DNA of 64,000 nucleotides from Armatimonadota bacterium (GCA_037444405.1 JBBIML010000007.1:96001-160000); one strand, 5' to 3'. Counted from the stretch's first letter, positions 29,365 to 45,599 are shown. Notes: generated by a model not told the origin, from the sequence alone. Numbers and translations are program-made.

Positions 29365-30190
29365 TCAGCGCGTACAGGGGCAGCGGCAGTCGCCGGCGAT
29401 AGTGCTTCGCGTAGAACCGTTCCAGCGCGCGGTGCGACTCTAAAATCGCCGCGCGACGCACCTGGCGCGTGCTGGCGCCCCCATGATGCAGAATCACCAC
29501 CTCGGGCACGAACCAGATCTGCCAGCCCGCCTGCCAGATTCGATAGCACCAGTCCACATCGTTGAAAAAGAGCGGGAACGACTCGTCCATCAGCCCCACC
29601 TGCTCAATTACTGCACGCCGCACCATCAGAAAAGTGCCCATCGGCTGATCGACGGGGCTTGCGCGGTCGTAGTGGAACCAGCGCATGCGATAGGCGGCGA
29701 GCAGGCGCGAGCGGGGAAAGAGTCGCGCCAGCCCCAGCACTTCAAACAACAGGTTGCGCGGGGTCGGGAAGCCACGCACGGATGGCTGAACCTGCCCGTC
29801 GGGCAGGAGCTGTTTCGCCCCGATCGCGCCCACCTCGGGATGCGCGCGCAGGAAGCGCAACGCAGTCGGCAAAGTGCCCGCCTGAACCTCCGTGTCGGGG
29901 TTCAGAAGCAGAATGAACTCGCCCTGCGCCCGCCTCATTGCCTGATTGTTGCCCGCCGCATAGCCCCGATTCTCGGCATTCGCGATCAGCACCACCTGCG
30001 GGAACTCCGCCTGAACCATCGCCGCACTGCCATCGCTGGACGCATTATCCACCACAATCACCTCGAACGGCTCATCGGGGGGATGCTGATAAATGGAGCG
30101 CAGGCAGGCACGCAGCAGCTCGCGCGTGTTCCAGTTCACGATGCAGATGCTGAGCGCAACGGGCAGGCGACCCCGACTCTCTGCTGGCAT
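29309..30190 (-). CDS. GT2 glycosyltransferase (WbbL-like); start uncertain (30190 or 30202)
   Basis: 'IVNWNT', 'VVDNASSDG', 'LLLNPD', 'DESFPLFFNDVDWCYR', 'HHGGAS'. Confidence 0.9.
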   Translation of the reverse strand: MPAESRGRLPVALSICIVNWNTRELLRACLRSIYQHPPDEPFEVIVVDNASSDGSAAMVQAEFPQVVLIANAENRGYAAGNNQAMRRAQGEFILLLNPDTEVQAGTLPTALRFLRAHPEVGAIGAKQLLPDGQVQPSVRGFPTPRNLLFEVLGLARLFPRSRLLAAYRMRWFHYDRASPVDQPMGTFLMVRRAVIEQVGLMDESFPLFFNDVDWCYRIWQAGWQIWFVPEVVILHHGGASTRQVRRAAILESHRALERFYAKHYRRRLPLPLYALIIALIRLSAWLRVLLNPR

Positions 30191-30377
30191 TAATAGCAGC
30201 ATACCTTCGATGCGTGAAGCGGGTGTACTTGCGTCGATGGGATGAAGCCGATTCGCCTCTCCGTCCACGCAAGCGAAGTGTCGGAAGAACTTCGCCTATA
30301 ATGCAGAGTGGAACGGCAAGTTCTATAACACAAAGCAGGTGCGCCCAATCTTTGTGGAAGAAGCGAACGAGAGTAGC

Positions 30378-31274
30378 TCATAAGGAAGCCTGCTCGCTGC
30401 CGCCAACGGGCTGACCGCCAGCCTCGATAATCTGGCGGTTGCCCGGCAGTTGCTCCAGTCGATGCGCCAGCACCGACACCGTGCGCTGATGCGCTATGAG
30501 TTCACAGCACAGTTGCACGATGTAGCCGTCGGGGCGGGCTTCGATCACGAACACGCTCTCACTCAGATAGGCGATCAGCGCGTCGCGATAGCGACTGTTC
30601 GAGGCGACCCAGCCGTCGCGCGGGCGGAACGGACTGATCGCCAGCGCATGGGCGGGGTCGAACTCAGTGCGCCAGATTCGCGCCTGACGCAACGGCTCCC
30701 GACGCAGGTCATCGCCGAACGCGCTCAATAGTCCCCGATCCAGCACCAGCCCATAGGGATGATCCGCCCGTAGCGCACAGAGCAACGCCCGCTGATAGGC
30801 AGGCTGGTTGAGGCTTGTGAGGGGCACCCAGCCGTTTTGCAGAAACGCCTGCGCCACCTGCTCCAGCTCGGTCAGCCCCTCCGCTGAAACGGTGTGCGAC
30901 GCCAGCAGGGCGACCGTCGGCTCGCTCAACAGCGCGTAGTTGCCATAAAGGAACAGGATAGCGGGCGGATCGGGCATGCTTTCGAGCTGGCGCGGATATG
31001 CCGCATCCTGAAAGCTGAACCAGCGCACGCCACAGCGCGTGAGGGACGCCTCCAGCCGTTCGGTTTCCTGAACCAGCGCGGCGCGGTTCTCCTGCAGAGC
31101 GCGAATGGCGCGTGAGGGCAGGCGATAGTCGTGCTGAAGAGTCTCCGCTGGCGCCCGCAGAATCTCTTCGGGCGTCACCCGCCACACCGACTGCCGCTCC
31201 AGCAGATAGCGCAAAGTCTGCCGCCCCACATCGGGCAACAAACTCAAAAAGAGCAGCCATTGACGCTCTGACAT
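30378..31274 (-). CDS. Divergent DprA/Smf-like protein
   Basis: 'YPRQLESMPDPPAILFLYGN', 'RDALIAYLSESVFVIEA', 'GNRQIIEAG'; the canonical GSR and SGxAxGID motifs are replaced. Confidence 0.7.
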   Translation of the reverse strand: MSERQWLLFLSLLPDVGRQTLRYLLERQSVWRVTPEEILRAPAETLQHDYRLPSRAIRALQENRAALVQETERLEASLTRCGVRWFSFQDAAYPRQLESMPDPPAILFLYGNYALLSEPTVALLASHTVSAEGLTELEQVAQAFLQNGWVPLTSLNQPAYQRALLCALRADHPYGLVLDRGLLSAFGDDLRREPLRQARIWRTEFDPAHALAISPFRPRDGWVASNSRYRDALIAYLSESVFVIEARPDGYIVQLCCELIAHQRTVSVLAHRLEQLPGNRQIIEAGGQPVGGSEQASL

Positions 31275-31289
31275 CTATTGATCAGCACC

Positions 31290-31646
31290 TCACAAAGGGA
31301 GCCATATCACTCTGTTTTCGAGTTCTTCGGGAAAGCCGGCTACAAGTAGTAGCTCCAGATCAGAAATTGCGCGTCCAATCGGCAAATCCTGCGGCACGAC
31401 GACCACACCTGGTACAAATAGCCCCTGCTGTAGACGCTCAAATACCAGAGGGGGTATGGAAACCTTATCGTGGGTCAGGAGGATTCGCCCCTCAGTGGCA
31501 GCACGCTCCAAGATGCCTTCATCAGGTTCCTCTGCCAGACCCAGTTCCTGCGCCGTGACAACATCTAAGTTTCTAAGCCGACGGAGCAGTCCCTGCACGA
31601 TGAGTCGATTGAAGTTTGTGTCCACCATGACCTTGATAGTTCTCAT
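31290..31646 (-). CDS. DUF5615 PIN-like toxin
   Basis: 'VMVDTN', 'GLAEEPDEGILERAATEGRILLTHD', 'PGVVVV'; overlaps the upstream DUF433 gene. Confidence 0.88.
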   Translation of the reverse strand: MRTIKVMVDTNFNRLIVQGLLRRLRNLDVVTAQELGLAEEPDEGILERAATEGRILLTHDKVSIPPLVFERLQQGLFVPGVVVVPQDLPIGRAISDLELLLVAGFPEELENRVIWLPL

Positions 31647-32020
31647 TCCTTCGCTTTGTCTGACTGTTGCTGGGTTTGGAGCCGTCGATAGCGTTTGAGC
31701 AGTCGCTGGCGCAGGTTGCGGGCAGGATGGAGCATCGCCCACTGCCTTCGGTTCTCTTCTCCCACTCGCTCCATCACCTCCAGATAAGCGTCCAGCACTT
31801 CGCGATTATGCAAATAGCATGTTACAATTGTGTACACATCTTCCAGCTGAAGTGTGGGATATTGCATGGCAATCTCTTCGGGCGTGTATCCCTGCTGGAA
31901 GGCTATCAACACCGTCTCCAGCGGGATTCGTGTGCGCCCGACTCGAATTATGCCGCGTTCATCAACTCGGAGCGGCAGTGATGGTGTAGTTAACTGTTCC
32001 AGTACACGCCTCGCATCCAT
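31643..32020 (-). CDS. DUF433 antitoxin
   Basis: 'IRVGRTRIPLETVL..FQQGYTPEEIAMQYPTLQLEDVY'. Confidence 0.9.
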   Translation of the reverse strand: MDARRVLEQLTTPSLPLRVDERGIIRVGRTRIPLETVLIAFQQGYTPEEIAMQYPTLQLEDVYTIVTCYLHNREVLDAYLEVMERVGEENRRQWAMLHPARNLRQRLLKRYRRLQTQQQSDKAKE

Positions 32021-32046
32021 ACTTTTCAGGATACCTTAAGCCGAGC

Positions 32047-34260
32047 CTACTCCTGAATGATTTTATGATAGCGGGCAAGCCAGTAGGGGAGCAGGAAGGC
32101 GGTGCCATCGTCTTCGCTGCGTCCGAGAGGGTCGCCCCCATCGAGCCGATAGGGGTTGCCGTTCCAGCGCATCACTACCCGCTCGCTATAGGGCAGCACC
32201 TCCACCGATTGCCATTCGCCGAACCGACCCCGATTCACATCGAGTGTGATGTCCCGCCGATGGCTGTTGCGACACTCATAGTTGCGCAGGTCTAACGGCC
32301 ACTCCTGCAGGGTCTGCACGGCAGCCTCCACATCGCACGGCTTGCCCGTTACCGCGCCGTAAATGAAGTTAAACAGCGGGCTGCGTTCGGGGCGCTCAAT
32401 CTGCCAGCTGCGCTCCAGACTCATCAGCCACAGCCGCCGATAGGTCGGATCCCGCTCATACAGCAACAGCGGATAGTAGCACAGGAACGCCAGCTGGTCA
32501 TCGGAGTGATTGATTTCGTAGGGCGGCAGCATCTTCTGCGTGACGGCGTTCAACAGGTAGTGATGCTCGCGAATCAGCTGCTCATAGGCTTGCTGATATT
32601 TCGCGTTGCCCGTGATGTGATGGGCGACCTTCAGATGGGAGAGAATAGAAAGCGCGTTCAGCCCGCGCTCCTCCTCCCACAGCGGGTCGTCATTCAGCGA
32701 TTCGGGATTGAAGATTGCCCAGCGGGTGGGCTTGCCATCCTTATCGATCAGGCGCCAGTTGTTCTGCATCAGGTGGTCGGTGACGCGGCGCACCACGCCC
32801 CGAATCGCCTCCTTCTCCTTCTCGTCCGCCACCAGGTCATAATAGATGGCCCAGATGAAGTAGTGCCCGTCCAGCTCGTCGGAGCTGGTGTCGCCCTTCC
32901 AGATGTAGCTGGGGTCGACGGGCGATTCGTGCCACTCGCCCGACGATTGATGATAGCGCGTCTCGCTTTTATGGATGATGCTGCGAGCGGGGAAGCCGGG
33001 GATGCCCGTGAGCCGTTCCAGCTCCAGCAGGGCGTGCAGGGAGCGTCGGGCGCGCTCGCGTGCCTGCTGGTCGCCTGTGGCAGCGTACTGGAAGCACTGC
33101 GCGGCGCAATAGAGCGCGGTCCACAGCCCGTCGTTGTCGCTTGCTTCAATCTTCCAGCTATCGGGGTCGTTCGGGTCGTCCCAGTCGCAGCTGGTGACGA
33201 AGCCGTTGCGGTTGTGGCGTAGGGCGATCAGGTGTTCGTAATGCTCCGCCTTCTCGCGTAGGGTCATGCGCACCGATTCGATGCAGGCAAGCCCATTCGC
33301 GGTGGCAACCCAAGCGCGATTGCGCGAATCGACGGCAATCGCCTGAACGCGATTATCAGGCAGCCAGCGTTTGCCCCAGAAATAGCTCCATCTGCCGTCG
33401 CGCAGTCGGCATGCGCCTTCGGGCGTGCCGAGCCACAGGTCACCATCGGGCGCGAAAGTCAGACAGCGCGCTTCGCCATAGGGTGGACCGCCCTCCCTGC
33501 CCTCGCGGGGCAGCCACCAGCCGTCGCCATCGCCCAGCAATAGCCCCGTGCGCGTGCCAATCCACAGATGTCCCGATGCGTCGCTGATGGCGCACAGCCA
33601 GCGGTCGTCATAGTACCGCCCGCGATTGTCACGGATGCCGACAACCTGCCAGCGTCCTGTTGCTCTGTCGAGCCGATAGAGGGCGCGCTCCAGCTCGCCC
33701 TCCGCAAAGGCGAACAGGCGTCCCTGCGCATCCTCCACCAGCCAGTGGAAGCGTCGAGCAGGCGGCGATGCATAACGCGCGCGGATACCATCCAGAAAGT
33801 GCAGCAGCTCATCGGCATAGAGGAGCCAGACACCGCCCTCCCGCGCTGCATACACCCCTATCAGCGGTGACGAGGATTCATAAATGCGTTCAGGTCGGTC
33901 AGGTGATGGGAGCCGCCAGAGCGTCTGTTCGTTCGCAGCGTAGAGTATCTTGCTTACAGGGTCGACCGCGAGCCAGCGGATGGGCGCATTCAGCACCGTT
34001 TGCCAGCGGGGCGAATCGAGCGGGGCGCGCGCCAGCCCCTTCGCCGTGCCCACCCAGAGCGTGTCACCCGTAATACACAGCGCGTGAATATTCGCGTCTG
34101 GAATGCCATGCTCAACACCAAAAAAGCGGCTCCTGTCCTGCCAGTAGGGTTGCAGGGTGTAAGTGTTGCTCATCATCATGCTCACCGCCAGCATCGCCAC
34201 GCTCACCAGCATGGTTGCCCCTTTTCTGGCTACAGGCATCGTTTCCTGCTTTACCCTCAC
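32047..34260 (-). CDS. Exported protein: regulator-type beta-propeller plus putative (alpha/alpha)6 glycosidase-like domain; start uncertain
   Basis: 'LWVGTAKGL', 'LWIGTRTGL', 'LPDNRVQAI' repeats; C-terminal 'SDNDGLWT', 'WKGDTSSDELDGH', 'NHSDDQL'. Confidence 0.7.
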   Translation of the reverse strand: MRVKQETMPVARKGATMLVSVAMLAVSMMMSNTYTLQPYWQDRSRFFGVEHGIPDANIHALCITGDTLWVGTAKGLARAPLDSPRWQTVLNAPIRWLAVDPVSKILYAANEQTLWRLPSPDRPERIYESSSPLIGVYAAREGGVWLLYADELLHFLDGIRARYASPPARRFHWLVEDAQGRLFAFAEGELERALYRLDRATGRWQVVGIRDNRGRYYDDRWLCAISDASGHLWIGTRTGLLLGDGDGWWLPREGREGGPPYGEARCLTFAPDGDLWLGTPEGACRLRDGRWSYFWGKRWLPDNRVQAIAVDSRNRAWVATANGLACIESVRMTLREKAEHYEHLIALRHNRNGFVTSCDWDDPNDPDSWKIEASDNDGLWTALYCAAQCFQYAATGDQQARERARRSLHALLELERLTGIPGFPARSIIHKSETRYHQSSGEWHESPVDPSYIWKGDTSSDELDGHYFIWAIYYDLVADEKEKEAIRGVVRRVTDHLMQNNWRLIDKDGKPTRWAIFNPESLNDDPLWEEERGLNALSILSHLKVAHHITGNAKYQQAYEQLIREHHYLLNAVTQKMLPPYEINHSDDQLAFLCYYPLLLYERDPTYRRLWLMSLERSWQIERPERSPLFNFIYGAVTGKPCDVEAAVQTLQEWPLDLRNYECRNSHRRDITLDVNRGRFGEWQSVEVLPYSERVVMRWNGNPYRLDGGDPLGRSEDDGTAFLLPYWLARYHKIIQE

Positions 34261-34303
34261 CTCCAGGAAGTGGAAACGGCTCGCGGGGTATACTTGAGTT
34301 ACT

Positions 34304-35560
34304 ATGTGTGCAGGGAGAGCGTTCCGTAAAGGGTTTGTCGGGCTATTCAGCCTGTTGCTGGGGTGGGCAGGTGCGCAGACGCCCGCATTTTACGGTGCAG
34401 GCGACTTGCCCGGTGGCAACTACAGCAGCAACCTGTTCGCCATCTCCGCGAATGGACAGGTCGCCGTCGGTTCCAGCCTTTCTGCGAACGGCACAGAAGC
34501 GTGCTACTGGACGGTTACGACAGGGCTGGTGCCGCTGGGCGATTTGCCGGGTGGTACTTTTGTCAGCATCGCGTGGGGTGCATCGTATGACGGCGCGGTG
34601 ATTGTCGGTCAGGCGCGCTCGGCAAGTGGCACGGAGGCGTTCCTGTGGCGACGCGACACGGGCAGCATGATCGGGCTGGGCGATTTGCCTGGAGGTACAT
34701 TCCAGAGCTTCGCCCTTGGCGTGTCCGCCGACGGCAGTGTGGTGGTCGGCTGGAGCGCGTCAGCAAATGGCTCGGAGGCGTTCCGCTGGACACTGGACGC
34801 AGGCATGGTGCCGCTGGGCGACCTTCCCGGTGGCTCTTTCGCCAGCTATGCCCAGAATGTGTCTGCCGATGGGAATGTGATTGTCGGGCGCAGTGAATCG
34901 GCGAACGGCACGGAGGCGTTCCGCTGGACGCAAAGCACTGGCATGGAGCCGCTGGGCAGTCTGGGCGGCGCGTCATTTTTCAGCTACGCCTACGCCGCTT
35001 CCGCCGATGGCAGTGTGGTGGTCGGCTGGAGCCGCTCACTGAACGGGCTGGAGGCGTTCCGCTGGACCGCCGATGACGGCATGCAGGGGCTGGGCGATCT
35101 GGAATCGGGCGCCTTTGAGAGCCGCGCGTATGCGGTGTCAGCAGATGGACGCCTGATAGGCGGGTTCGGCACCTCCGATATTGGTAAAGAGGCGGTGCTG
35201 TGGGACCCTGTCAACGGCATGCGGCGAGTCAGGGATATCCTGCTGGCGCTGGGTCTTTCGGAGGTAGAGAACTGGCGACTGGAGGAGGTGCGTGCCATTT
35301 CTGCCGACGGCACGGTGATTGCAGGCACAGGCGAGAATCCCAGCGGCAACAGGGAAGCATGGATTGCTGTCATCCCGCGCACAGATCGCCATGCAGGGGA
35401 TATTAATCTTGACGGCTGTGTGGACGACGCCGACCTGCTGCAGGTGCTGTTCGCCTTCGGCAATACAGGCTACTTCCCGCCCGAAGATGGGAACTACGAC
35501 GCGGTGGTGGATGATGCCGACCTGCTGCAGGTGCTGTTCAATTTTGGCAGCGGGTGTTAG
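34304..35560 (+). CDS. Extracellular HAF-repeat protein with C-terminal dockerin/EF-hand-like duplicate
   Basis: Repeated 'EAFRWT..GM..LGDLPGG.F.S.A..VSADG.VVVG' units; 'GDINLDGCVDDADLLQVLFAFG...DDADLLQVLFNFGSGC'. Confidence 0.88.
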   Translation: MCAGRAFRKGFVGLFSLLLGWAGAQTPAFYGAGDLPGGNYSSNLFAISANGQVAVGSSLSANGTEACYWTVTTGLVPLGDLPGGTFVSIAWGASYDGAVIVGQARSASGTEAFLWRRDTGSMIGLGDLPGGTFQSFALGVSADGSVVVGWSASANGSEAFRWTLDAGMVPLGDLPGGSFASYAQNVSADGNVIVGRSESANGTEAFRWTQSTGMEPLGSLGGASFFSYAYAASADGSVVVGWSRSLNGLEAFRWTADDGMQGLGDLESGAFESRAYAVSADGRLIGGFGTSDIGKEAVLWDPVNGMRRVRDILLALGLSEVENWRLEEVRAISADGTVIAGTGENPSGNREAWIAVIPRTDRHAGDINLDGCVDDADLLQVLFAFGNTGYFPPEDGNYDAVVDDADLLQVLFNFGSGC

Positions 35561-35789
35561 GCTGCCCCCTGCGTAGGAGAGGGGCATGAAGCTGGGGAAA
35601 GATGTAGCGAGCCAGTGCGTCGCTTGCAATCCCCAGGTGTTGCCCAGATTTTTCCTTCCTGACTCGCGACCGCAAACCCTGCCAGAGGGTGTGCATGACC
35701 TGGGGATTCGCCGCGCTGAGATTCGCCCCTGAATGGCAGGGATACAGGATATGGTGGCGTACAGGAGCAGGGGACACAACAGAAAGGGT

Positions 35790-35874
35790 TGGTGCCCGGG
35801 GCGGGACTCGAACCCGCACGGGTTATCCCCAGAGGATTTTAAGTCCCCCGCGTCTGCCGTTCCGCCACCCGGGC
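35790..35874 (-). tRNA. tRNA-Leu (anticodon UAA), CCA encoded
   Basis: GCCCGGG-TGGCGGAACGGCAGACGC-GGGGA-CT-TAA-AA-TCCTC, long variable arm, GCGGG-TTCGAGT-CCCGC, CCCGGGC-ACCA. Confidence 0.97.
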
Positions 35875-35940
35875 AACGGTTTCCTCCCTGAATGGATGAT
35901 GGGCGCTCATAATCGCGGATGCAGGTTCCGCGCAGCTAAA

Positions 35941-36090
35941 AGGATACCCTATCGCTTTGTCGAATAGCCCACGCAGGCGGCTCATCTGTATCAATCGCCG
36001 CAGTTGCATGCGGATTAAGCAGGAATCGGCGATCCGCTGTCGAAGATCGTTCAACAGGAAGGCAATTAAGCAGGAATCGGCGTGTCGATA
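35941..36090 (+). promoter_or_regulatory. Tandem sigmaH-like promoters and an 18-bp direct repeat
   Basis: AGGA-N17-GAAT (35941/35962) and AGGA-N17-GAAG (36021/36042), both with TGTCGAA; ATTAAGCAGGAATCGGCG at 36014 and 36065. Confidence 0.55.
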
Positions 36091-36220
36091 CAAGTATTCT
36101 ATAGCCGAAGCAGGGCACTGATACAAAGTGAGCAGCTGGAAGGGTGGCGGCTGTTGCCTCGACGCTTTTCCCTGAGCGATGTCTGTGCAGCGCGTATGCG
36201 CGTGTTAGCGGAGGTAGGCG

Positions 36221-36913
36221 ATGGTGGAGCGTCGCTGGAGTGCAGCTCAGATCGAGGCGACCCTGCGCGAGCTGAAAGGCGTGTGCGGAGCGCGTGTGGT
36301 GGCGGATGAAAAGGGTCTCATTCAGGAAATCCACCTGCTGGTGGAGGGGGATCGGAACCCGAAGCAGGTGGTGCGCGATGTCGAATCCGCCCTGATGGCG
36401 CACTTCGGCGTGCATATCGACCATCGCAAGGTGAGCGTGGCACAGAAAGGCGCAGGGCGTGGGTATACTCCCGCGCGATTGCGCTGGCTCGATTTGCAGA
36501 TTGTTCAGGAAGGCACGCGAGCGACCGCGACGGTGTTCGTGGAGCGGGGCGGTCAGGTCTATCGGGGTACGGCGTCCGGCGTGCGCGCCAGCACGCAACT
36601 CCCACGACTGGTCGCCACCGCCACCCTGCGCGCTGTTGAGTCGGCACACGGGCTACATGAGCGGTTCGGACTGGAAGATGTGTCGACCAACACGGTGCTG
36701 GCAGGGTATCCTGTGGCAGTGGTGCTGGTGAGCGCGGTGCGTGAGAACGGCGAGGACCTGCTGGTGGGCAGTGCGCTGGTGCGTCAGGATGTGTATCGAG
36801 CGATTGGGCTGGCAACTTTAGATGCGGTTAATCGGCGGGTGGTTGCTTTCCCCAGCGATTTTGAGCCGACGCCAGAGGCGGCGGTGCTGATGCAGGGACA
36901 AGTAACGGATTAG
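36221..36913 (+). CDS. Conserved hypothetical cytoplasmic protein
   Basis: RBS GGAGGT; 'IQEIHLL...RNPKQVVRDVESAL..FG..IDHRKVSVAQ', 'LLVGSALV', 'ATLDAVNRR'. Confidence 0.85.
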   Translation: MVERRWSAAQIEATLRELKGVCGARVVADEKGLIQEIHLLVEGDRNPKQVVRDVESALMAHFGVHIDHRKVSVAQKGAGRGYTPARLRWLDLQIVQEGTRATATVFVERGGQVYRGTASGVRASTQLPRLVATATLRAVESAHGLHERFGLEDVSTNTVLAGYPVAVVLVSAVRENGEDLLVGSALVRQDVYRAIGLATLDAVNRRVVAFPSDFEPTPEAAVLMQGQVTD

Positions 36914-36936
36914 GGGCGCGGTCACCGCGCCCGTAC
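36911..36936. repeat. GTAG-type REP-like palindrome supplying the stop codon
   Basis: TAGGGGCGCGG-tca-CCGCGCCCGTAC; its TAG is the stop of 36221-36913. Confidence 0.75.
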
Positions 36937-37041
36937 CCACTTGGGGCGCATATCCCGCAGATGCGCCCTATCGGGCAGGGCGAGCGCAGAAGCGGAGCGG
37001 AACCGAGCGACGCATATTCTCGACACAGGAGGGAGCAGCTG

Positions 37042-37179
37042 ATGCGACGGTGGCTCGTTCTGATGGCTGCGCTCGTTGCGCTGATGGCGGTCGCCAGCGC
37101 GAAGAAGGTGTACTACCCGCACCGCTGGGATGACCCGCTGGAGGCGCAACCCAACACGGTGGTGTTGCCCACACCATAA
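37042..37179 (+). CDS. 45-aa secreted peptide precursor
   Basis: RBS AGGAGGGAG; MRRWLVLMAALVALMAVASA-KKVYYPHRWDDPLEAQPNTVVLPTP, with a basic n-region, hydrophobic h-region and A-S-A site. Confidence 0.75.
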   Translation: MRRWLVLMAALVALMAVASAKKVYYPHRWDDPLEAQPNTVVLPTP

Positions 37180-37283
37180 GGGGCACACTTGAAAGGATAG
37201 CGCGAAGCGCTTGCCCTGCCTGAAAGTGAACCCTCGTTCCCGGCGGCACTGGCTGCCGCCTATAGCCGCATCGGAAACGAACA

Positions 37284-38651
37284 ATGGCAATCGCGCACAG
37301 GAATCAGCTGCGGAGGCGGCACTGGCTCTGGAGTGGACTGCTTTCGGCAACGGCGATACTGATTCTGATGGCGGCGGGCAGCCCCATCCAGCAAGCAGGG
37401 CAACTGCCCCTGCTACTGGGGCTGGCAGCTGTCGCGCTGCTGGGTGAGCTGCTGCTGATCCGCTATCCGCTCCGCCACGGCTACACCGATCGCGGCATCT
37501 GGGTGAGCGTCAGCACGCCCATCGTGGCGGCGGTGATTTTGCTCTACGGTTGGGCGATGGGCGTGTGGCTCGATGCGGGCGTCACCTTCGGCGCAGGACT
37601 GCTCACCGCTCGGCTCAAACAGTCGCGCCTGCGCTGGGTGTGGCTCAACACGGCGCAGAGCGTGCTGTGCGCCGCTGCAGCCGGCATCTGTCCCATCGCT
37701 TTCCAGTACCTGTTAGATGGGTTCAGCGAGGCGCCTGCCGGCGTTTTTGCGAACACCCTCTTTGCTTCACCTGCCGTCGCTGTGCTGGCTCTGTTCACCA
37801 TCCTGGTTGTTTATAGCATGATCAATAACCTGCTGGTGTCGGTCACGGTGGCTCTGGCGGAGGGCGTGCGGTTTGGGTGGGTGTTGCGCGAGTCGCTGCT
37901 CGATTTGCCGCGCGAGACACTGCCGATGTTCCCGCTGAGCCTGCTGCTAATGGCGATGCTCCATCTATATGGGCTTACAGGTTCGCTGACCGTGCTGGCG
38001 CCCTATCTGGCGCTGCGCCAGGCGTTCATTCTCTCCACACGCCAGCATGAGCTGTATCATCAGACGATTCGCAGTCTGGGCTTTTTGATTCAGCGGGCGC
38101 ATCCGTACACTGGGGGGCATCTGCAGCGGGTGGCGCAGTGGGGTCGGCGTGTCGCCGAGCGGCTGGGGCTACCCCCCGAACGCTGTGAACTCATCTACGA
38201 AGCCGCGCTCCTGCACGACCTCGGCAAAACGGTGCTGGATGAACGAATCCTCAACAAACCGGGGCGACTGACCCCGCGCGAATGGGAGCAGGTGCAACGC
38301 CATCCGCAGCTGGGCGCGGAAATCCTCACCGATGTGCCGTTCCTGAACGCGATTGTGCCCTGGATTACCTATCACCATGAGCGCCCCGATGGCAAAGGCT
38401 ACCCGCACGGACTGAGAGGCGACCAGATTCCGCTGGAGGCACGGATTATCGCCGTCGTGGACGCCTTCGACGCGATGATTGGCGGCGAAGCGCCCAGTCA
38501 GCAGCGCCAGTATCGGCGCTCACTCACCATCCCCGAAGCGCTGAACGAGCTGCGGCGCGGCGCGGGCACGCAGTTCGACCCGCAGGTGGTGCAGGTGTTC
38601 GAGCAGGTGGTGCAGGAATGGTTGCCGTATCAGGAGGGGACGCGGAGGTAA
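37284..38651 (+). CDS. Multi-TM HD-GYP cyclic-dinucleotide phosphodiesterase
   Basis: Multi-TM N-terminus; 'HPYTGGHLQRV', 'LLHDLGK', 'HHERPDGKGYPHGL', 'VDAFDAM', 'RQYR', 'GTQFDP'. Confidence 0.92.
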   Translation: MAIAHRNQLRRRHWLWSGLLSATAILILMAAGSPIQQAGQLPLLLGLAAVALLGELLLIRYPLRHGYTDRGIWVSVSTPIVAAVILLYGWAMGVWLDAGVTFGAGLLTARLKQSRLRWVWLNTAQSVLCAAAAGICPIAFQYLLDGFSEAPAGVFANTLFASPAVAVLALFTILVVYSMINNLLVSVTVALAEGVRFGWVLRESLLDLPRETLPMFPLSLLLMAMLHLYGLTGSLTVLAPYLALRQAFILSTRQHELYHQTIRSLGFLIQRAHPYTGGHLQRVAQWGRRVAERLGLPPERCELIYEAALLHDLGKTVLDERILNKPGRLTPREWEQVQRHPQLGAEILTDVPFLNAIVPWITYHHERPDGKGYPHGLRGDQIPLEARIIAVVDAFDAMIGGEAPSQQRQYRRSLTIPEALNELRRGAGTQFDPQVVQVFEQVVQEWLPYQEGTRR

Positions 38652-38654
38652 GCG

Positions 38655-39371
38655 ATGGAGAACCTGTGGCTGGGTCTGGCAGTGGTGCTGGCTTCGATCG
38701 GTGCGCTGGGCTATTATGCTTTTATTTTTCTACCCGCCCAGCTCCATCGCTGGCACTGTCAGACCCTGCGGGCGTTCGCGAAGGTGATCGAGCTACGCAC
38801 CCAGGGTCGCTACGGGGACACCGAAACCATGGCGCAGTTAGCGCGGGCGGTCAGCGCGCGATTGGGGCTCGACGCGCAGGAACGCAAACGGCTGGAGCTA
38901 TCGGTCTACCTGCGCGACATCAGCATGGTGAGCCTGCCCTACGCGCTGCTGAATAAGACGACGCCCCTCTCACCGATGGAGCAGCTGACACTGATGCGGC
39001 ATGCGGAGATCAGCGCGGCGATGGTGGAGCAGATTCCGGGACTGAGTGCGGTGGCGCCGCTGGTGCGCCTGCATCATGTGAGTTATGCGCAGCAGCCCGA
39101 TGCCCCGCTGAGCGCGCACCTGCTGTCGGCGCTGTCAGACCTGATGGAGCAGGCTCAGCGGGAGGGCTATGAGGCGGCGTTGCGCGTGTTGCAGGCAGGT
39201 GCGGGCACGCGCTATCACCCCGCGGTTGTGCCGGCAATTGAGGCGGAGCTGCAGGCGCGCCCGCTGGAGAGCTGGGTGCCCCTACGGCGTTCCGCTGCCC
39301 TGTGGTTCGGGCTGATACTGTATCCGCTGAAAGATCTGTCGCGCCTGCTCATAGAATTCGCGCGGCACTAA
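38655..39371 (+). CDS. Single-TM degenerate HD-GYP-like protein
   Basis: N-terminal TM; HD replaced by 'LRDIS'; 'HHVSY' lacks the DGxGYP loop; 'AGTRYHP' remains. Confidence 0.8.
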   Translation: MENLWLGLAVVLASIGALGYYAFIFLPAQLHRWHCQTLRAFAKVIELRTQGRYGDTETMAQLARAVSARLGLDAQERKRLELSVYLRDISMVSLPYALLNKTTPLSPMEQLTLMRHAEISAAMVEQIPGLSAVAPLVRLHHVSYAQQPDAPLSAHLLSALSDLMEQAQREGYEAALRVLQAGAGTRYHPAVVPAIEAELQARPLESWVPLRRSAALWFGLILYPLKDLSRLLIEFARH

Positions 39372-40361
39372 CTTCGGCGCGCGCACCCCCTCCGCCAGCG
39401 GGATCGCCACAATCTCGGTGCCACGCAATGCCGACATCAGCCCGAACTGGCGTTCATGCACCAGCTCGGCAGCTTTGAGCGCGAGTCGCGTCGCCAGCAC
39501 GCGATCGAACACTGTCGGCGGTCCGCCCCGCTGAATGTGCCCGATGACCGCATAGCGCGTCTCGAAGCCTGTTATCTCTTCGATTTTCTGGGCGATTCGG
39601 GCGCCGACCGCGCGCTCGCGCAGCACGGGATGCCCGAAGTCGTCGGTGGCTATCGGCTGCCCGTCATGTTCAAACGGCAGCTCCACTCCTTCGGAGACGA
39701 CCACCAGTGCGTAGCGCTTGCCACTGGCATAGAGCTGGCGCAGGTAGTCGCACATCTCCTGGAGGTCGATGGGCACTTCGGGGATCAGAATCCAGTCGGC
39801 GCCGCCACCGATGCCCGCGTAGAGCGCGACCCAGCCCGCATGGCGCCCCATCACCTCCAGCACGATGACCCGCGTGTGCGATTTGGCGGTGTCGCGCAGG
39901 CGGTCCATCGCCTCCACCGCGACCGAGACCGCGCTATCAAACCCGAAGGTGAAGTCGGTGCCGCTTAAATCGTTGTCCATCGTTTTGGGCACGCCGACGA
40001 CAGGGAGCTGATGCTCCTGATAGAGGCGGTTGGCGACGCCCAGCGTGTCCTCCCCGCCGATGGCGATCAGGGCATCCAGTTGAAGGGCGCGATAGTTCTC
40101 CAGCAGGCGCTGGAGGTCGCCCTCCTGCTTGAACGGGTTCGTGCGGGAGGTGCCCAGAATGGTGCCGCCCTCCCGAATAATCTCGTCCACGCGCTCGACG
40201 CTGAGTGGGACGGTCCAGCCTTCCACCAGTCCGCGCCAGCCGTGCTGGATGCCGACAGGTGTATGACCGTCGCGTATCAGGCGCAGCGTTGCGCCCCGTA
40301 TCGCGGGATTCAGACCGGGGCAGTCGCCCCCACCTGTCAAAATGCCAACGCGCATAACCAT
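39282..40361 (-). CDS. pfkA: 6-phosphofructokinase (group III, GGED/PKT signature)
   Basis: 'TGGGDCPGLN', 'GGTILGTSR', 'GGEDT', 'PKTMDND', 'EVMGRHAGW', 'GHIQRGG'. Confidence 0.92.
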   Translation of the reverse strand: MVMRVGILTGGGDCPGLNPAIRGATLRLIRDGHTPVGIQHGWRGLVEGWTVPLSVERVDEIIREGGTILGTSRTNPFKQEGDLQRLLENYRALQLDALIAIGGEDTLGVANRLYQEHQLPVVGVPKTMDNDLSGTDFTFGFDSAVSVAVEAMDRLRDTAKSHTRVIVLEVMGRHAGWVALYAGIGGGADWILIPEVPIDLQEMCDYLRQLYASGKRYALVVVSEGVELPFEHDGQPIATDDFGHPVLRERAVGARIAQKIEEITGFETRYAVIGHIQRGGPPTVFDRVLATRLALKAAELVHERQFGLMSALRGTEIVAIPLAEGVRAPKLVPREFYEQARQIFQRIQYQPEPQGSGTP

Positions 40362-40591
40362 CGCCTCCTTACACTCCCGTGCGATCGGGGCTATCATACT
40401 ATTTTACCGCATACCGCGTGTGTTAGTGCCCTTCGACTCAGCGGTAGTCGGCAGGCGAAAAGTCCTCCGGCGGGGTTTCAGCGCGGATTTTGCCTCCCGT
40501 CTTTTTACGGGGTTCTGCAGCCGCTGTCCGCTTTTGGCGTTTCAACGAGTCTATATCGGATGGAGAGTAACCTTCCTTCCAGAATGCAGTC

Positions 40592-40627
40592 AATCCCCCC
40601 ATCGGGGTGCCAGTGGGGGGATTTTTT
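40592..40627 (+). terminator. Hairpin with U-tract on the + strand
   Basis: AATCCCCCCA-N12-TGGGGGGATT followed by further T's. Confidence 0.65.
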
Positions 40628-40648
40628 GGCGGATTGGGCTACAGGGGT

Positions 40649-41170
40649 TCAGAAGCGGAACTGGAGCGCGACGGTGAAGCCCTGAAGGTCGTCGCCGCCG
40701 TCCACGAAACCGCCATAGCCCACGAACAGGGCGACCGGTGTGGTGCCCGCGCTGAAGTTGTAGCCGAAGCCGAGCGACCAGTCGAAGCCAGTCTTGTCAT
40801 CGCCATTGCTGGCGAAGCCGATCCCGGCAGTCGCGCGGTAGAAGAACTGCTCGTTGAGGTAGCCCGTGAAGCTCAGTCCGACGGGGATGACGCGGGCATC
40901 ACTGGTGCCGTAGAAACCTACGAACGCCCCCAGATCGTAGTAGTAGCCCGACTCAGTCGGCTTGCTGGTCTGGAAGTTGTAGGTGAGGTTGACGCTGAAC
41001 CACACATCCTCGGTCGCCTTGCGCACCGACTCCTTGGATGGGAGGAAGATACCAGCGTACACCGCATAGCCCTGCTGGTTCGTCTCTTGCGCACGGGCTG
41101 GTGCTGCCAGCATCAGCGTTCCCACCAGCGCTACTGTTATAAGCCACAGCATTCCCTTGTGCATCATCAT
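40649..41170 (-). CDS. Small outer-membrane beta-barrel protein
   Basis: Signal peptide (ARA), amphipathic strands, terminal 'ALQFRF'. Confidence 0.75.
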   Translation of the reverse strand: MMMHKGMLWLITVALVGTLMLAAPARAQETNQQGYAVYAGIFLPSKESVRKATEDVWFSVNLTYNFQTSKPTESGYYYDLGAFVGFYGTSDARVIPVGLSFTGYLNEQFFYRATAGIGFASNGDDKTGFDWSLGFGYNFSAGTTPVALFVGYGGFVDGGDDLQGFTVALQFRF

Positions 41171-41199
41171 AGACCCTCCGTGTGTAGAGTGTGTCTCTG

Positions 41200-41227
41200 A
41201 TTATACCCGCATTTTCACTCTTGTCAA
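41200..41227 (-). promoter_or_regulatory. Consensus sigma70 promoter for the beta-barrel gene
   Basis: TTGACA-N16-TATAAT on the minus strand. Confidence 0.85.
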
Positions 41228-41239
41228 GGGGTAGAGCGG

Positions 41240-42226
41240 CTAACATGCCATCAAGCCGGGCGCCTGCGGGGCGACGGGGATAATCTGTTCGGCGACCTTC
41301 TGCAGGGCGGCGAGCGTGCGCTGGGGCTGAAGGGTCAGCACTATCACGGTGCCGCTGGCGCCGCCTGCGCCCGCCAGCTTTGCTCCCAGTGCGCCATTCT
41401 CCAGCGCGACCTGCACCAGCCGATGGAGCGATTCGCTGCTGCCGCCCAGCGCGTGAATGACGGCGTAGTTCTCGTTCATCAGCGCGCCCAGCGTCTGCCA
41501 CTCCTGCTCCAGCAGGGCGCGTTTGGCTTCGCGTGCCAGTCGCCCGATGTGCGCCATGCCGTCTATCACGGCGCGTTCGCCCGATTCCCAGCGTTCGCGC
41601 AAGGAGCGATGCACGGCTCCCGAAAAGCGCTGCCCGCCCGTGGTCGCCAGCCAGAGCGGGAGCGTGACCCCACGCAAATAGCCACCGAGCGATTCCACCG
41701 TTGCCAGCGGCTCGTTCGCATCGCGCCCCAGCCCCTCCTTATCGCGAAACTCCATCAGATTGACACCGCCGAACACCGCCATATAGAAGTCCTGATAGCC
41801 GCAGGTGACCCGCAGGTGCTGGGCTTCGATCTGGCGCACGCACTCCGCCAGCCGATGGGGGATGGGCATCTCGCGCCGATAATGGAGCAGGCATGCCACT
41901 ATCGCGGTCAACAGCGCGGAGGAGCCTGCCAGACCCGACTGCATCGGGATGTCGCTTTCGATGCGCAGGCTGAACCGCGCTGTATCGATGCTGTAGCCCA
42001 GCGCCCGCAGCGCGGCGCGACACAGGTCGAACTCGTCTCCCTGATGCTCCAGCGTGTCGGGTGTCAGCGTGCGGGCAGGCGACTGGAAGCTGAGATGGTC
42101 CGCAGGCTGAAGCGTGCAACGGGCACGCAACGGAATGGCGCAGGAAATCACAGTGCCACCATATAAATCGCTGGGATTGCCAATAATGCCTGCCCGACCC
42201 GGCGCCGAATAGCGAATCGCCTCCAT
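41240..42226 (-). CDS. GHMP-family sugar kinase (glucuronokinase/HddA-like)
   Basis: '[13 protein letters not shown]', '[12 protein letters not shown]', 'CGYQD', 'GAKLAGAGG'. Confidence 0.85.
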
Positions 42227-42304
42227 ACCCCGTTGCGATTCGCGCTCCCTGCGCTATCTCCTGCAGCAGCCGCGCAGATTCGTGCCCCGGCGGGTATACT
42301 TCTG

Positions 42305-44464
<2,160 letters not shown>

Positions 44465-44465
44465 A

Positions 44466-45599
44466 ATGCAAACTTATCGCTATCTGATTATTGGCGGTGG
44501 GCTGGCAGCTGATGCGGCGGTGATGGGCATTCGCGCCGTCGATGAATCGGGTCGTATCGCGATTTTGAGCGAGGAGCCGCATCCGCCCTATCGTCGCCCC
44601 ATGTTGAGCAAGGCGCTCTGGTTCGGCACGCCGCTCGATGAGGTATGGCTGCCGACCGCCGATGCGGGCGCGGAGGTACACACAGGGGTGCGGGTCGTCC
44701 AGCTCGATCTGGGCGCAAAGCGCGTGCTGGATCAGCGCGGCAACGAGTGGGGCTTCGAGAAGCTTCTGCTGGCGACGGGTTGCACGCCGCGCACCCTGCC
44801 GAACGCGCCCGACGGTGTTCTCTACTTCCGCACCCTGAACGATTACCTTGCCCTGCGCAAGCAGGTTCAGAGCGCGGAGCATGTCGGCATCATCGGCGGG
44901 GGCTACATCGGCTCGGAGCTGGGCGCCGCGCTCGTTGCCAGCGGCAGGCGCGTCACGATGCTCTTTCCCGAATCGGGCATCTGCGCTCGCCTGCTGCCCC
45001 CGATTCTCAGCGACTGGCTGAACGCCTTCTATCGCGAGCGGGGCGTCGAGGTGCTGACTGGCGTGCTGGTTGAGGCGGTGGAGCGGGGCGAGCGGTGGCA
45101 GGTGCGGCTGTCCAGCGGGCAGACGCTCGCGTTCGACGCGCTGGTGGCGGGGCTGGGCGTGCGACCTCGCGATGAGCTGGCACGCTCCGCTGGACTGCCC
45201 ACGCCCGACGGCATCCGTGTCAATCCCTTCTTCCAGACGGAACACCCCGATGTGTACGCGGCGGGCGATGTCGCCTGCTTCCCCTACGCCGCGCTGGGCA
45301 TCGAAACGCGCGTCGAGCATGAAGACCATGCGATTGCCAGCGGCTTCTATGCGGGTCAGGCGATGGCGGGCGCGGCGCAACCCTACGAACACCTGCCGAT
45401 GTTCTACAGCGAGCTGTTCGGCATTCGATATGAGGCGGTCGGGCTGATCGATAGCCAGCTGGAGATGCGCATCGAGGGCGACCTGCCCGACGGCGCGGGT
45501 GTGGTCACCTATTATCAGAATGGGCGGCGAGTGGGCGCGCTCAGCTGGCGCCACGCCCGCCCCATCGACGAGCTGCGCGAGTGGCTCGCCGGCGCGTAG
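44466..45599 (+). CDS. NAD(P)/FAD-dependent oxidoreductase (ferredoxin-reductase/AIF-like)
   Basis: 'IIGGGLA', 'PYRRPMLSK', 'LLATG', 'GGGYIGSE', 'YAAGD', 'RVEHEDHA', 'PMFYS'. Confidence 0.88.
   Translation: MQTYRYLIIGGGLAADAAVMGIRAVDESGRIAILSEEPHPPYRRPMLSKALWFGTPLDEVWLPTADAGAEVHTGVRVVQLDLGAKRVLDQRGNEWGFEKLLLATGCTPRTLPNAPDGVLYFRTLNDYLALRKQVQSAEHVGIIGGGYIGSELGAALVASGRRVTMLFPESGICARLLPPILSDWLNAFYRERGVEVLTGVLVEAVERGERWQVRLSSGQTLAFDALVAGLGVRPRDELARSAGLPTPDGIRVNPFFQTEHPDVYAAGDVACFPYAALGIETRVEHEDHAIASGFYAGQAMAGAAQPYEHLPMFYSELFGIRYEAVGLIDSQLEMRIEGDLPDGAGVVTYYQNGRRVGALSWRHARPIDELREWLAGA

Follow-up and report, generated by a model that had tools for sequence, protein, structure and literature searches.

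A gene arrangement in which an uncharacterised protein (A230), a leader RNA, a micro-protein, a MASE9-type HD-GYP protein and a degenerate HD-GYP protein follow one another in this order is conserved in at least five phyla, and one copy of it lies in the DNA analysed here, a stretch of 64,000 nucleotides (the window) from an Armatimonadota bacterium (GCA_037444405.1, JBBIML010000007.1:96001-160000) whose genome is 2.68 Mb in size and 98.9% complete. HD-GYP enzymes hydrolyse cyclic di-GMP (c-di-GMP), a bacterial messenger. The names of homologues point to Armatimonadota/Fimbriimonadales. We see about an even chance that the locus represents an old c-di-GMP control operon handed down vertically, in which the micro-protein acts at the membrane as partner or ligand of the MASE9 sensor. 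As the layout recurs in several phyla, the micro-peptide gene probably supplies the missing input of the sensor enzyme. The locus consists of four co-oriented open reading frames (ORFs) on the + strand at 36221-39371 of the window:

36221-36913, + strand: A230, 230 aa, cytoplasmic, member of an uncharacterised widespread family (from the ORF listing)
37042-37179, + strand: micro-protein gene, 45 aa (from an ORF scan and the conserved start)
37284-38651, + strand: predicted membrane HD-GYP c-di-GMP phosphodiesterase, 455 aa, polytopic, with an HD_5 domain, MASE9-type by orthology
38655-39371, + strand: HD238, degenerate HD-GYP paralogue, 238 aa, with a single transmembrane segment and an HD_5 domain

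An earlier note on this DNA, made from the sequence alone, had described four co-oriented genes with a 3-nt gap before the second HD-GYP gene, and the ORF listing contains all of them, HD238 starting 3 nt past the stop codon of the membrane HD-GYP gene. The genes of that layout stand on the + strand as given, but it missed the RNA leader and the link between the A230 domain and a diguanylate cyclase, both of which are described below. The size of 45 aa that it gave for the small ORF is right, the conserved start being ATG 37042. From its first ATG the frame extends from 36961 to 37179 (72 aa); the conserved product, MRRW..., begins at ATG 37042, and a Shine-Dalgarno sequence, AGGAGGG, is located 8 nt upstream of this codon. 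Scanning with consensus sequences was uninformative, with one sigma-70 promoter-like site where 1.2 were expected and five terminator-like sites where 2.7 were expected, and neither kind of site was found between the four genes.

Synteny was examined in two samples, namely 10-kb loci around the A230 homologue in 20 related genomes and the best 80 loci among at least 586 tblastn-confirmed A230 stretches in species-representative genomes. The result showed that the order A230, small ORF, HD-GYP, second HD-GYP was present in all 20 loci of the related genomes, where the small ORF was followed with the 72-aa frame as query and by ORF scans. Because the order, small ORF included, was identical in 20/20 relatives, the gene set is beyond chance. 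The cross-phylum loci belonged to Armatimonadota, Actinomycetota (mostly Coriobacteriia), Bacillota (Caloranaerobacter, Symbiobacterium, Geosporobacter, Thermincola and Thermosediminibacter), Sumerlaeota and Chloroflexota. Culturable candidates among the carriers are Caloranaerobacter azorensis DSM 13643, Geosporobacter subterraneus DSM 17957, Thermosediminibacter litoriperuensis DSM 16647 and Symbiobacterium thermophilum. An HD-GYP homologue started within 1.5 kb in 62 of the 64 cross-phylum loci that had at least 1.7 kb of downstream sequence. A hydrophobic micro-ORF was found by script in 65 of the 70 loci that had at least 300 nt downstream and by eye in two more (L070 and L082), giving 67/70. 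A comparison of homologous loci had been proposed in the earlier note as a check of its reading, and its outcome is that a small hydrophobic ORF is kept between A230 and the membrane HD-GYP among the relatives and across phyla. The cassette is present in a single copy per genome.

Co-occurrence was followed in 40 relatives from five families (f1 to f5), which are not independent samples. Both A230 and the MASE9 region were detected in 24/24 genomes of f1, 3/3 of f2 and 1/1 of f4, and both were absent from f5 (0/6 each); in f3, A230 was found in 0/6 genomes and the MASE9 region, weakly, in 1/6. A230 and this MASE9 subfamily are thus present or absent together in the 40 relatives. A phylum-wide scan for MASE9 gave a match in 38 of 151 genomes. 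Among the 30 MASE9 loci of the phylum that were examined, 13 were short HD-GYP genes with A230 upstream, 11 of them also having a micro-ORF by script, and 12 encoded long MASE9 proteins (641-852 aa) with neither A230 nor a micro-ORF. Since the loci of the long proteins have neither, the association is tied to a single MASE9-HD-GYP subfamily rather than to the MASE9 domain in general.

The product of 37284-38651 matched HD_5 (PF13487) over aa 269-435 with 125.2 bits (cut-off 27.2) and an E value of 3e-36. An alignment of 24 sequences showed that H279, H311-D312, H340, H364-H365, G372-Y373, D393 and R408 are invariant and that E366 and P374 are nearly so; the catalytic residues are kept, in agreement with the intact HD-GYP motifs read in the earlier note. 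Orthologues of the window HD-GYP in five other lineages pass the cut-off of the MASE9 profile (PF20972; 24.3 bits): L059, L073, L088, L105 and L119, together with the Fimbriimonadales protein P0169, scored 25.2-36.9 bits, and the scoring orthologues align with the window HD-GYP along the membrane region. MASE9 was defined on TM1467 of Thermotoga maritima, with eight predicted segments including an intramembrane hairpin; according to the available text of that work, a ligand is proposed to bind within the membrane, the periplasmic loops are poorly conserved, and HdgA of Streptomyces venezuelae is the sole studied MASE9 protein that is named (10.1101/2021.11.05.467447).

The micro-protein of the window consists of MRR, a 17-residue hydrophobic block ending in A-S-A with K next, and a 25-residue tail (KKVYYPHRWDDP...). 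The family-level consensus of the small ORF in the relatives is MKRWLILMAMVVAMMSVASAKRVYYPHRWDDP..., and that of a sister family is MFWAQILALLAALSALLGAKFTIYPPDD.... Across the first 33 codons of 16 distinct family-level sequences, 14, 9 and 24 sites were variable at codon positions 1, 2 and 3, respectively, and pairwise comparison of the same 16 sequences gave 1041 synonymous versus 644 non-synonymous codon differences. The family ranges from 21 to 47 aa, and 29 sequences from across the phyla are gapless from the initial Met to a G-A pair (MKRxxxxxxxLxALxLxxGA). This pair ends at residue 20 in 50 of the 58 anchored distinct sequences. When positions are counted back from the end of the block, position -1 is A, position -2 is G or S and position -3 is G, A or S, each in 55/58 anchored sequences, and an aromatic residue is favoured three positions past position 0. 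The tail is the variable part, with 4-9 residues in 43/58 sequences and 23-27 residues in 13/58, including the relatives of the window, and the hydrophobic block remains gapless across phyla. These results demonstrate a micro-protein with a fixed 20-residue N-terminal hydrophobic block. With fewer than 50 aa, one hydrophobic helix and a gene linked to that of a polytopic partner, it fits the description of a small membrane modulator.

The DNA of the spacer from A230 to the micro-ORF is itself conserved, and the leader is a structured RNA in which a long-range helix (P0) surrounds the micro-ORF and three AGCGR repeats are present. Its elements in the window are the following:

36944-36968, + strand: local GC-rich hairpin with arms GGGCGCAT and ATGCGCCC, just 5′ of the long-range helix
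36973-36987, + strand: 5′ arm of P0, pairing with 37207-37221
36991-37010, + strand: AGCGR repeats, with the tandem AGCGGAGCGG at 36991-37000 and a third copy, AGCGA, at 37006-37010
37027-37033, + strand: Shine-Dalgarno sequence AGGAGGG of the micro-ORF, which in sister genera is in a helix with the segment past the third repeat
37207-37221, + strand: 3′ arm of P0, starting 27 nt after the stop codon of the micro-ORF

P0 encloses the leader and the whole micro-ORF, and among 16 family-level loci both bases vary in 9 of its 15 pairs. In the same loci, 89.6% and 95.8% of the cells in the two halves of P0 were paired. For the whole tested leader structure, 88.9% of the cells were paired versus 38-48.5% with a slid partner, and its covariation score was reached by none of 500 shuffles. 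Two pairs of P0 are G-T when the + strand is read, which suits an RNA of the + strand. In other phyla the arms of P0 have other sequences, with a core GGRCCRRCG and its complement. Of 63 distinct loci, 40 had a strict Watson-Crick helix between the region upstream of the micro-ORF and the 75 nt past its stop that was so long that no more than 1 of 100 shuffles matched it; a permissive search that allowed G-U and one mismatch failed to separate loci from shuffles, with 23/63 loci above all 30 shuffles. The arms of the hairpin at 36944-36968 vary between genera with their complementarity kept, as judged by eye in the alignment.

The AGCGR repeat columns are invariant in the alignments. Outside Fimbriimonadales the third repeat forms the loop (UAGCGRA) of a covarying hairpin whose stem sequence varies freely. 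Because MAFFT did not align the hairpin leaders in structural register, these stems were counted by script; a stem of at least 6 bp was present in 34 of 36 distinct arm pairs versus 7.4% of flank shuffles, and the mean number of paired positions was 1.17 when arms were combined between loci versus 7.9 within a locus. In most Fimbriimonadales genera, a helix of 12 pairs covers the Shine-Dalgarno sequence, with 84.3% of cells paired and 5 of the 12 pairs changed on both sides. The repeat-plus-loop pattern occurred once at the cassette in each of five genomes of other phyla (5/5), with one extra match and 0-1 matches in controls. A looser repeat pattern gave 7 matches in the GC-rich genome of the window versus 21 in its reversed control, which indicates that the repeat pattern alone is not specific in this genome and gives no sign of a regulon. 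The tandem repeat alone had 1 match within the window against 1.52 expected. A search of window positions 30000-45000 against Rfam 15 at E<=0.1 returned tRNA only, and a search of six whole cross-phylum loci at E<=1 returned nothing in the spacer between A230 and the micro-ORF. Two further GC-rich hairpins, at 36914-36933 directly after the A230 stop and at 37242-37260 between the 3′ arm of P0 and the HD-GYP start, occur in the genus of the window only and have no T-run after them.

A230 had no Pfam match (even at E<=1) and no NCBIfam match. Its family is large, with 620 homologues at E<=0.001. The sources name its members 'hypothetical protein' or 'predicted nucleic-acid-binding protein', and clusters in the protein atlas are named 'hypothetical protein' only. 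In the AlphaFold2 (AF2) model, with a mean predicted local distance difference test score (pLDDT) of 85.2, aa 8-76 form a ferredoxin-like alpha-beta-beta-alpha-beta domain, for which the structural matches are of a common fold (Z 7-9.3), and aa 88-204 form two beta-beta-beta-alpha units of the type found in the regulatory domain of LeuA and citramalate synthase. For the latter, Foldseek matched LeuA 3hps_B (E 1e-5) and the LiCMS regulatory domain 3f6g_A (E 1.8e-4), and VIA-align matched 3f6g_B, the isoleucine-binding regulatory domain of citramalate synthase, with Z 9.2 and a root-mean-square deviation of 3.3 over 109 aligned residues. In addition, the A230 homologue P0078 scored 25.3 bits against LeuA_dimer (PF08502; cut-off 24.9). 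A sequence-profile search of the PDB with A230 gave nothing at E<=1. A230 thus appears to share its fold of two beta-beta-beta-alpha units with the LeuA/citramalate synthase domain, but the domain stands behind a ferredoxin-like domain or is fused to CBS-GGDEF, there is no synthase barrel, and the identity is 15-19%.

Such a fusion is found in the genome of the window itself, outside the window, where a CBS-CBS-GGDEF gene is located at 34082-35440 of contig C16 (L164:583-1941). Its 453-aa product keeps the GGDEF motif intact, and the last domain of this protein is 33% identical over 120 residues to the C-terminal domain of A230. This second genomic match of A230 had been considered as LeuA, an assignment that was rejected in favour of the CBS-CBS-GGDEF protein. 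The same combination of CBS-CBS-GGDEF and A230-type C-terminal domain was present in five of five further Armatimonadota genomes (6/6 with that of the window), and the four carriers outside Armatimonadota that were checked had A230 only. The gene neighbourhood and the cyclase fusion tie the A230-type domain twice to c-di-GMP enzymes. Longer fused forms of A230 did not appear at E<=0.001 in the homologue search, a result that the tool itself grades as weak evidence.

HD238 matched HD_5 with 53.9 bits (E 2.4e-14) and has one N-terminal hydrophobic segment. The alignment showed a loss of motifs, in line with the degenerate HD-GYP of the earlier note: the first His is changed to D, HD to RD and HHE to HHV, and the GYP motif is missing. 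The His of HD has given way to R, Q or M in each of the 11 aligned second-gene sequences, among them that of the window. The 3′ end of HD238 overlaps by 90 nt with a convergent phosphofructokinase gene on the minus strand (39282-40397). In several sister genera the second protein has 218 aa and lacks the 20-residue tail at this end, where the overlap is at 39282-39371.

An active enzyme paired with a degenerate one is already known from S. venezuelae hdgA/hdgB. According to the available text of the report on them, hdgA and hdgB (vnz24090/vnz24095) are adjacent and probably form one operon; HdgA is a membrane HD-GYP protein with six transmembrane segments (6TM) and conserved motifs, and HdgB, also 6TM, has no GYP and is predicted to be inactive (PMC6205966). 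Both were found only in the membrane fraction, and their deletions were without developmental phenotype, 'likely because activating signals are missing' (PMC6205966). The pair of the window is of the same kind, but HdgB has six transmembrane segments and HD238 one hydrophobic segment, and neither a micro-ORF nor an A230-like gene nor an RNA leader is mentioned for hdgA/hdgB in the available text (PMC6205966; 10.1101/2021.11.05.467447). The statement of the earlier note that no characterised system has this layout is in part out of date for the enzyme pair. Other Actinomycetota loci (such as L117 and L120) do carry a micro-ORF and A230. In Coriobacteriia loci (L074-L090 and others), the second gene encodes a product of about 390-420 aa whose N-terminal part is long and whose HD match is only weak, and this product is closer to the 6TM degenerate HdgB than the single-TM HD238 is. 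The second gene of L076 matched PF01966 (E 1.2e-10) and not HD_5.

A working model can be put forward for the locus. The micro-protein would insert in the membrane with its N-terminus inside and, as partner or ligand of the MASE9 domain, would set the activity of the phosphodiesterase, much as small membrane proteins tune other sensors. The degenerate HD-GYP paralogue may be a non-catalytic partner or a c-di-GMP-binding subunit. The leader RNA probably gates the amount of micro-protein; in most sister genera a helix beside the third repeat lies over the ribosome-binding site. A230 is envisaged as a cytoplasmic ligand-binding or dimerising regulator, which may bind the AGCGR repeats or act on the enzymes; since its C-terminal domain is common to the CBS-GGDEF cyclase, it could tie c-di-GMP synthesis to degradation.

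MgrB-PhoQ, SafA-PhoQ, KdpF-KdpABC and AcrZ-AcrB are examples of small single-helix membrane modulators of fewer than 50 aa. The proposed helix-helix contact with a polytopic partner would be the same, with the peptide gene here directly upstream of the partner gene. In contrast to these systems, with their kinases or pumps, the output would be hydrolysis of a second messenger; the sequences are unrelated, binding is only predicted, and the peptide may be cleaved. The predicted binding comes from modelling MASE9 aa 1-262 with the peptide, a structure prediction that the earlier note had suggested and that ended in a weak pass. The interface score (ipSAE, interaction prediction score from aligned errors) was 0.47 (runs 0.46-0.48) versus 0.01 for the best of three controls, the runs shared at least 85% of contacts, and the pLDDT of the partner was at least 51. 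The mark for a pass was reached by 116 of 157 solved complexes and by 2 of 215 mismatched pairs, counts that hold only roughly here because own alignments were used. Scores of 0.60 or less were those of only 18 of the 157 solved complexes and of both passing mismatches.

Several points weigh against a membrane-level partner of MASE9. Of modelled complexes that pass as weakly as this one, most are wrong unless the pairing was probable beforehand. The window HD-GYP itself had no match to MASE9 (PF20972) at E<=0.1, nor did a six-frame search of its own genome find one, so that the earlier guess of a MASE9-like membrane domain is borne out in the orthologues and not in the protein for which it was made. 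The most conserved sites of the micro-protein are positions -3 to -1, conservation at position 0 is only 0.87 bits, and this pattern is equally signal-peptidase-like, so the functional species could be the released tail. Helical periodicity was not significant for conservation within the hydrophobic block, as 369 of 2000 shuffles attained its index of 1.64. Three loci (L101, L110 and L111) have A230 and no micro-ORF, and two of these are also without HD-GYP. The helix over the Shine-Dalgarno sequence fits the window's own genus poorly, and the role given to A230 is drawn from its fold and neighbourhood alone.

A different model follows the line of the earlier note, which had a processed, secreted peptide report cell density. 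Residues 1-20 would be a Sec-type signal peptide, and signal peptidase would release the tail (25 aa here, 4-9 aa in most phyla), which MASE9 would sense from outside, so that c-di-GMP turnover responds to the cell's own peptide or to cell density. We consider this unlikely. The sequence features of a signal peptide are present in the window and in the 58 sequences: the n-region is basic, the hydrophobic core has about 13-14 residues, positions -3 and -1 hold small residues, and the A at -1 (55/58) is followed by a sharp drop in conservation; the peptide gene is also kept beside that of the putative receptor across phyla. SHP/Rgg, ComS/ComR, Phr/Rap and AgrD/AgrC are peptide pheromone systems whose short precursors have a basic N-terminus and a hydrophobic body and are encoded beside the receptor gene. 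By analogy, the micro-protein could be such a precursor, resembling the SHP/ComS type in size and charge and having a tail that varies between related species behind a conserved leader. The receptors of those systems are cytoplasmic TPR/HTH regulators or histidine kinases, whereas no such receptor, exporter or processing gene is among the genes scanned here: Pfam scans of 7 window proteins and of 55 ORFs at 8 cross-phylum loci found no RRNPP/Agr receptor and no processing or export gene, and no export, processing or re-import gene was seen among the cassette genes and their scanned neighbours. The family of the micro-protein also spans several phyla, and a mature part of only 4-9 aa in most of them differs from the pheromones, a product of 4-5 residues carrying little information. 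Furthermore, block residues that are position-specific (L at -10, A at -8, L at -7 and L at -5) and a length fixed in five phyla are unusual for a mere export signal, and the restriction of -2 to G or S goes beyond the -3/-1 rule. A signal sensed from outside also sits poorly with the intramembrane ligand expected, and the poorly conserved periplasmic loops noted, in the available text of the MASE9 work (10.1101/2021.11.05.467447). A secreted quorum signal is neither excluded nor supported, and nothing in the sequence here appears to point to a cell-density read-out, secretion or processing. Taken as a whole, the first reading of the locus is confirmed in its observation and partly supported in its interpretation.

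The micro-ORF might instead be a regulatory leader ORF, its AGCGR-controlled translation opening or closing P0 and thereby setting the translation, processing or stability of the HD-GYP message, with a peptide that has no function in trans; we hold this to be quite improbable. P0 does enclose the whole ORF, its 3′ arm lies within about 20 nt of the stop in many loci outside Fimbriimonadales (range 0-61 nt), so that a terminating ribosome would melt P0 there, and alternative pairings exist around the Shine-Dalgarno sequence. In hok mRNA fold-back and in the erm/cat leader ORFs, long-range helices enclose or gate small ORFs. The helix of 12-16 bp from upstream of the ORF to just past its stop and the alternative pairings near the Shine-Dalgarno sequence are features shared with them, but here the protein sequence of the ORF itself is conserved, and there is no Rfam match. 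Regulatory leader peptides are usually conserved only at the stalling motif, which counts against this explanation: the amino-acid sequence is gapless across phyla although the DNA has diverged, and synonymous changes exceed non-synonymous ones. In the window, moreover, the 3′ arm of P0 ends 62 nt short of the HD-GYP start and leaves the ribosome-binding site of that gene uncovered. It is barely credible that the micro-ORF encodes the membrane toxin of an unrelated type I toxin-antitoxin system whose mRNA is kept inactive by 5′-3′ fold-back and which stands beside the HD-GYP by accident. A small hydrophobic single-helix peptide would suit a toxin, and by analogy the long-range helix around the ORF could act like the fold-back inhibition of hok mRNA; strict synteny with A230 and one MASE9 subfamily in five phyla and in single copy is unlike mobile multi-copy type I loci, and no antisense RNA gene was seen, none having been sought.

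A further reading, which we regard as a long shot, is that the micro-protein is exported and cut, that its tail or hydrophobic fragment is the ligand of MASE9, that A230 binds the AGCGR repeats on a small-molecule cue and feeds back on the peptide, and that A230 couples c-di-GMP synthesis and degradation through the domain shared with the cyclase.

Further genes lie around the cassette. In the window, a tRNA-Leu(taa) gene (35790-35874, minus strand) is located upstream of A230. Farther upstream, 34304-35560 (+ strand) encodes a 418-aa HAF-repeat protein (TIGR02913, E 2e-37) whose N-terminus is signal-like and whose C-terminal part has two DxDxDG...DDADLLQVLF repeats, similar by eye to dockerins, and 32047-34260 (minus strand) encodes a protein of 737 aa that has a propeller repeat of two-component regulators (Reg_prop, E 1.4e-15) and whose large C-terminal portion is without a family match. 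In six of the eight cross-phylum loci scanned (L061, L073, L076, L088, L097 and L119), the HD-GYP gene or genes are followed by a DUF5317 (PF17248) gene, with two copies in L097, and the next gene in some Armatimonadota is one for a PMT_2 glycosyltransferase. A search of the window's genome, at its 98.9% completeness, did not find DUF5317, and a literature search on the term returned no mention of it. About 2 kb upstream of the cassette of Geosporobacter subterraneus, L097:2187-3277 contains a PilZ-domain gene together with a raiA RNA and a c-di-GMP-I riboswitch, which scored 169 and 71.3 bits, respectively; a gene for a ribosome hibernation factor comes after these, and L105 also has such a gene upstream.

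The enzyme type encoded by the locus is known, and the three conserved parts beside it, namely the peptide, A230 and the leader RNA, are undescribed. Available literature text on MASE9, TM1467, HdgA/HdgB and HD-GYP proteins with small membrane proteins contained no report linking such parts. We know of no counterpart of the three AGCGR repeats with the UAGCGRA loop. MASE9-HD-GYP enzymes are widespread, with an input signal so far unexplained, and the only studied pair, HdgA/HdgB, is without phenotype according to the available text (PMC6205966). The locus provides three candidate input components beside one MASE9-HD-GYP subfamily: a hydrophobic peptide of 21-47 aa, A230 with its predicted amino-acid-sensor-type fold, and the leader RNA. 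Through it, a micro-protein family that spans phyla and a candidate for a new cis-regulatory RNA come to light, and the question of what MASE9 senses becomes open to bench experiments. If the joint peptide-RNA-c-di-GMP circuit were true, it would be a new signalling architecture in at least five phyla, with an RNA-binding protein family and a cis-regulatory RNA that are both new as well.

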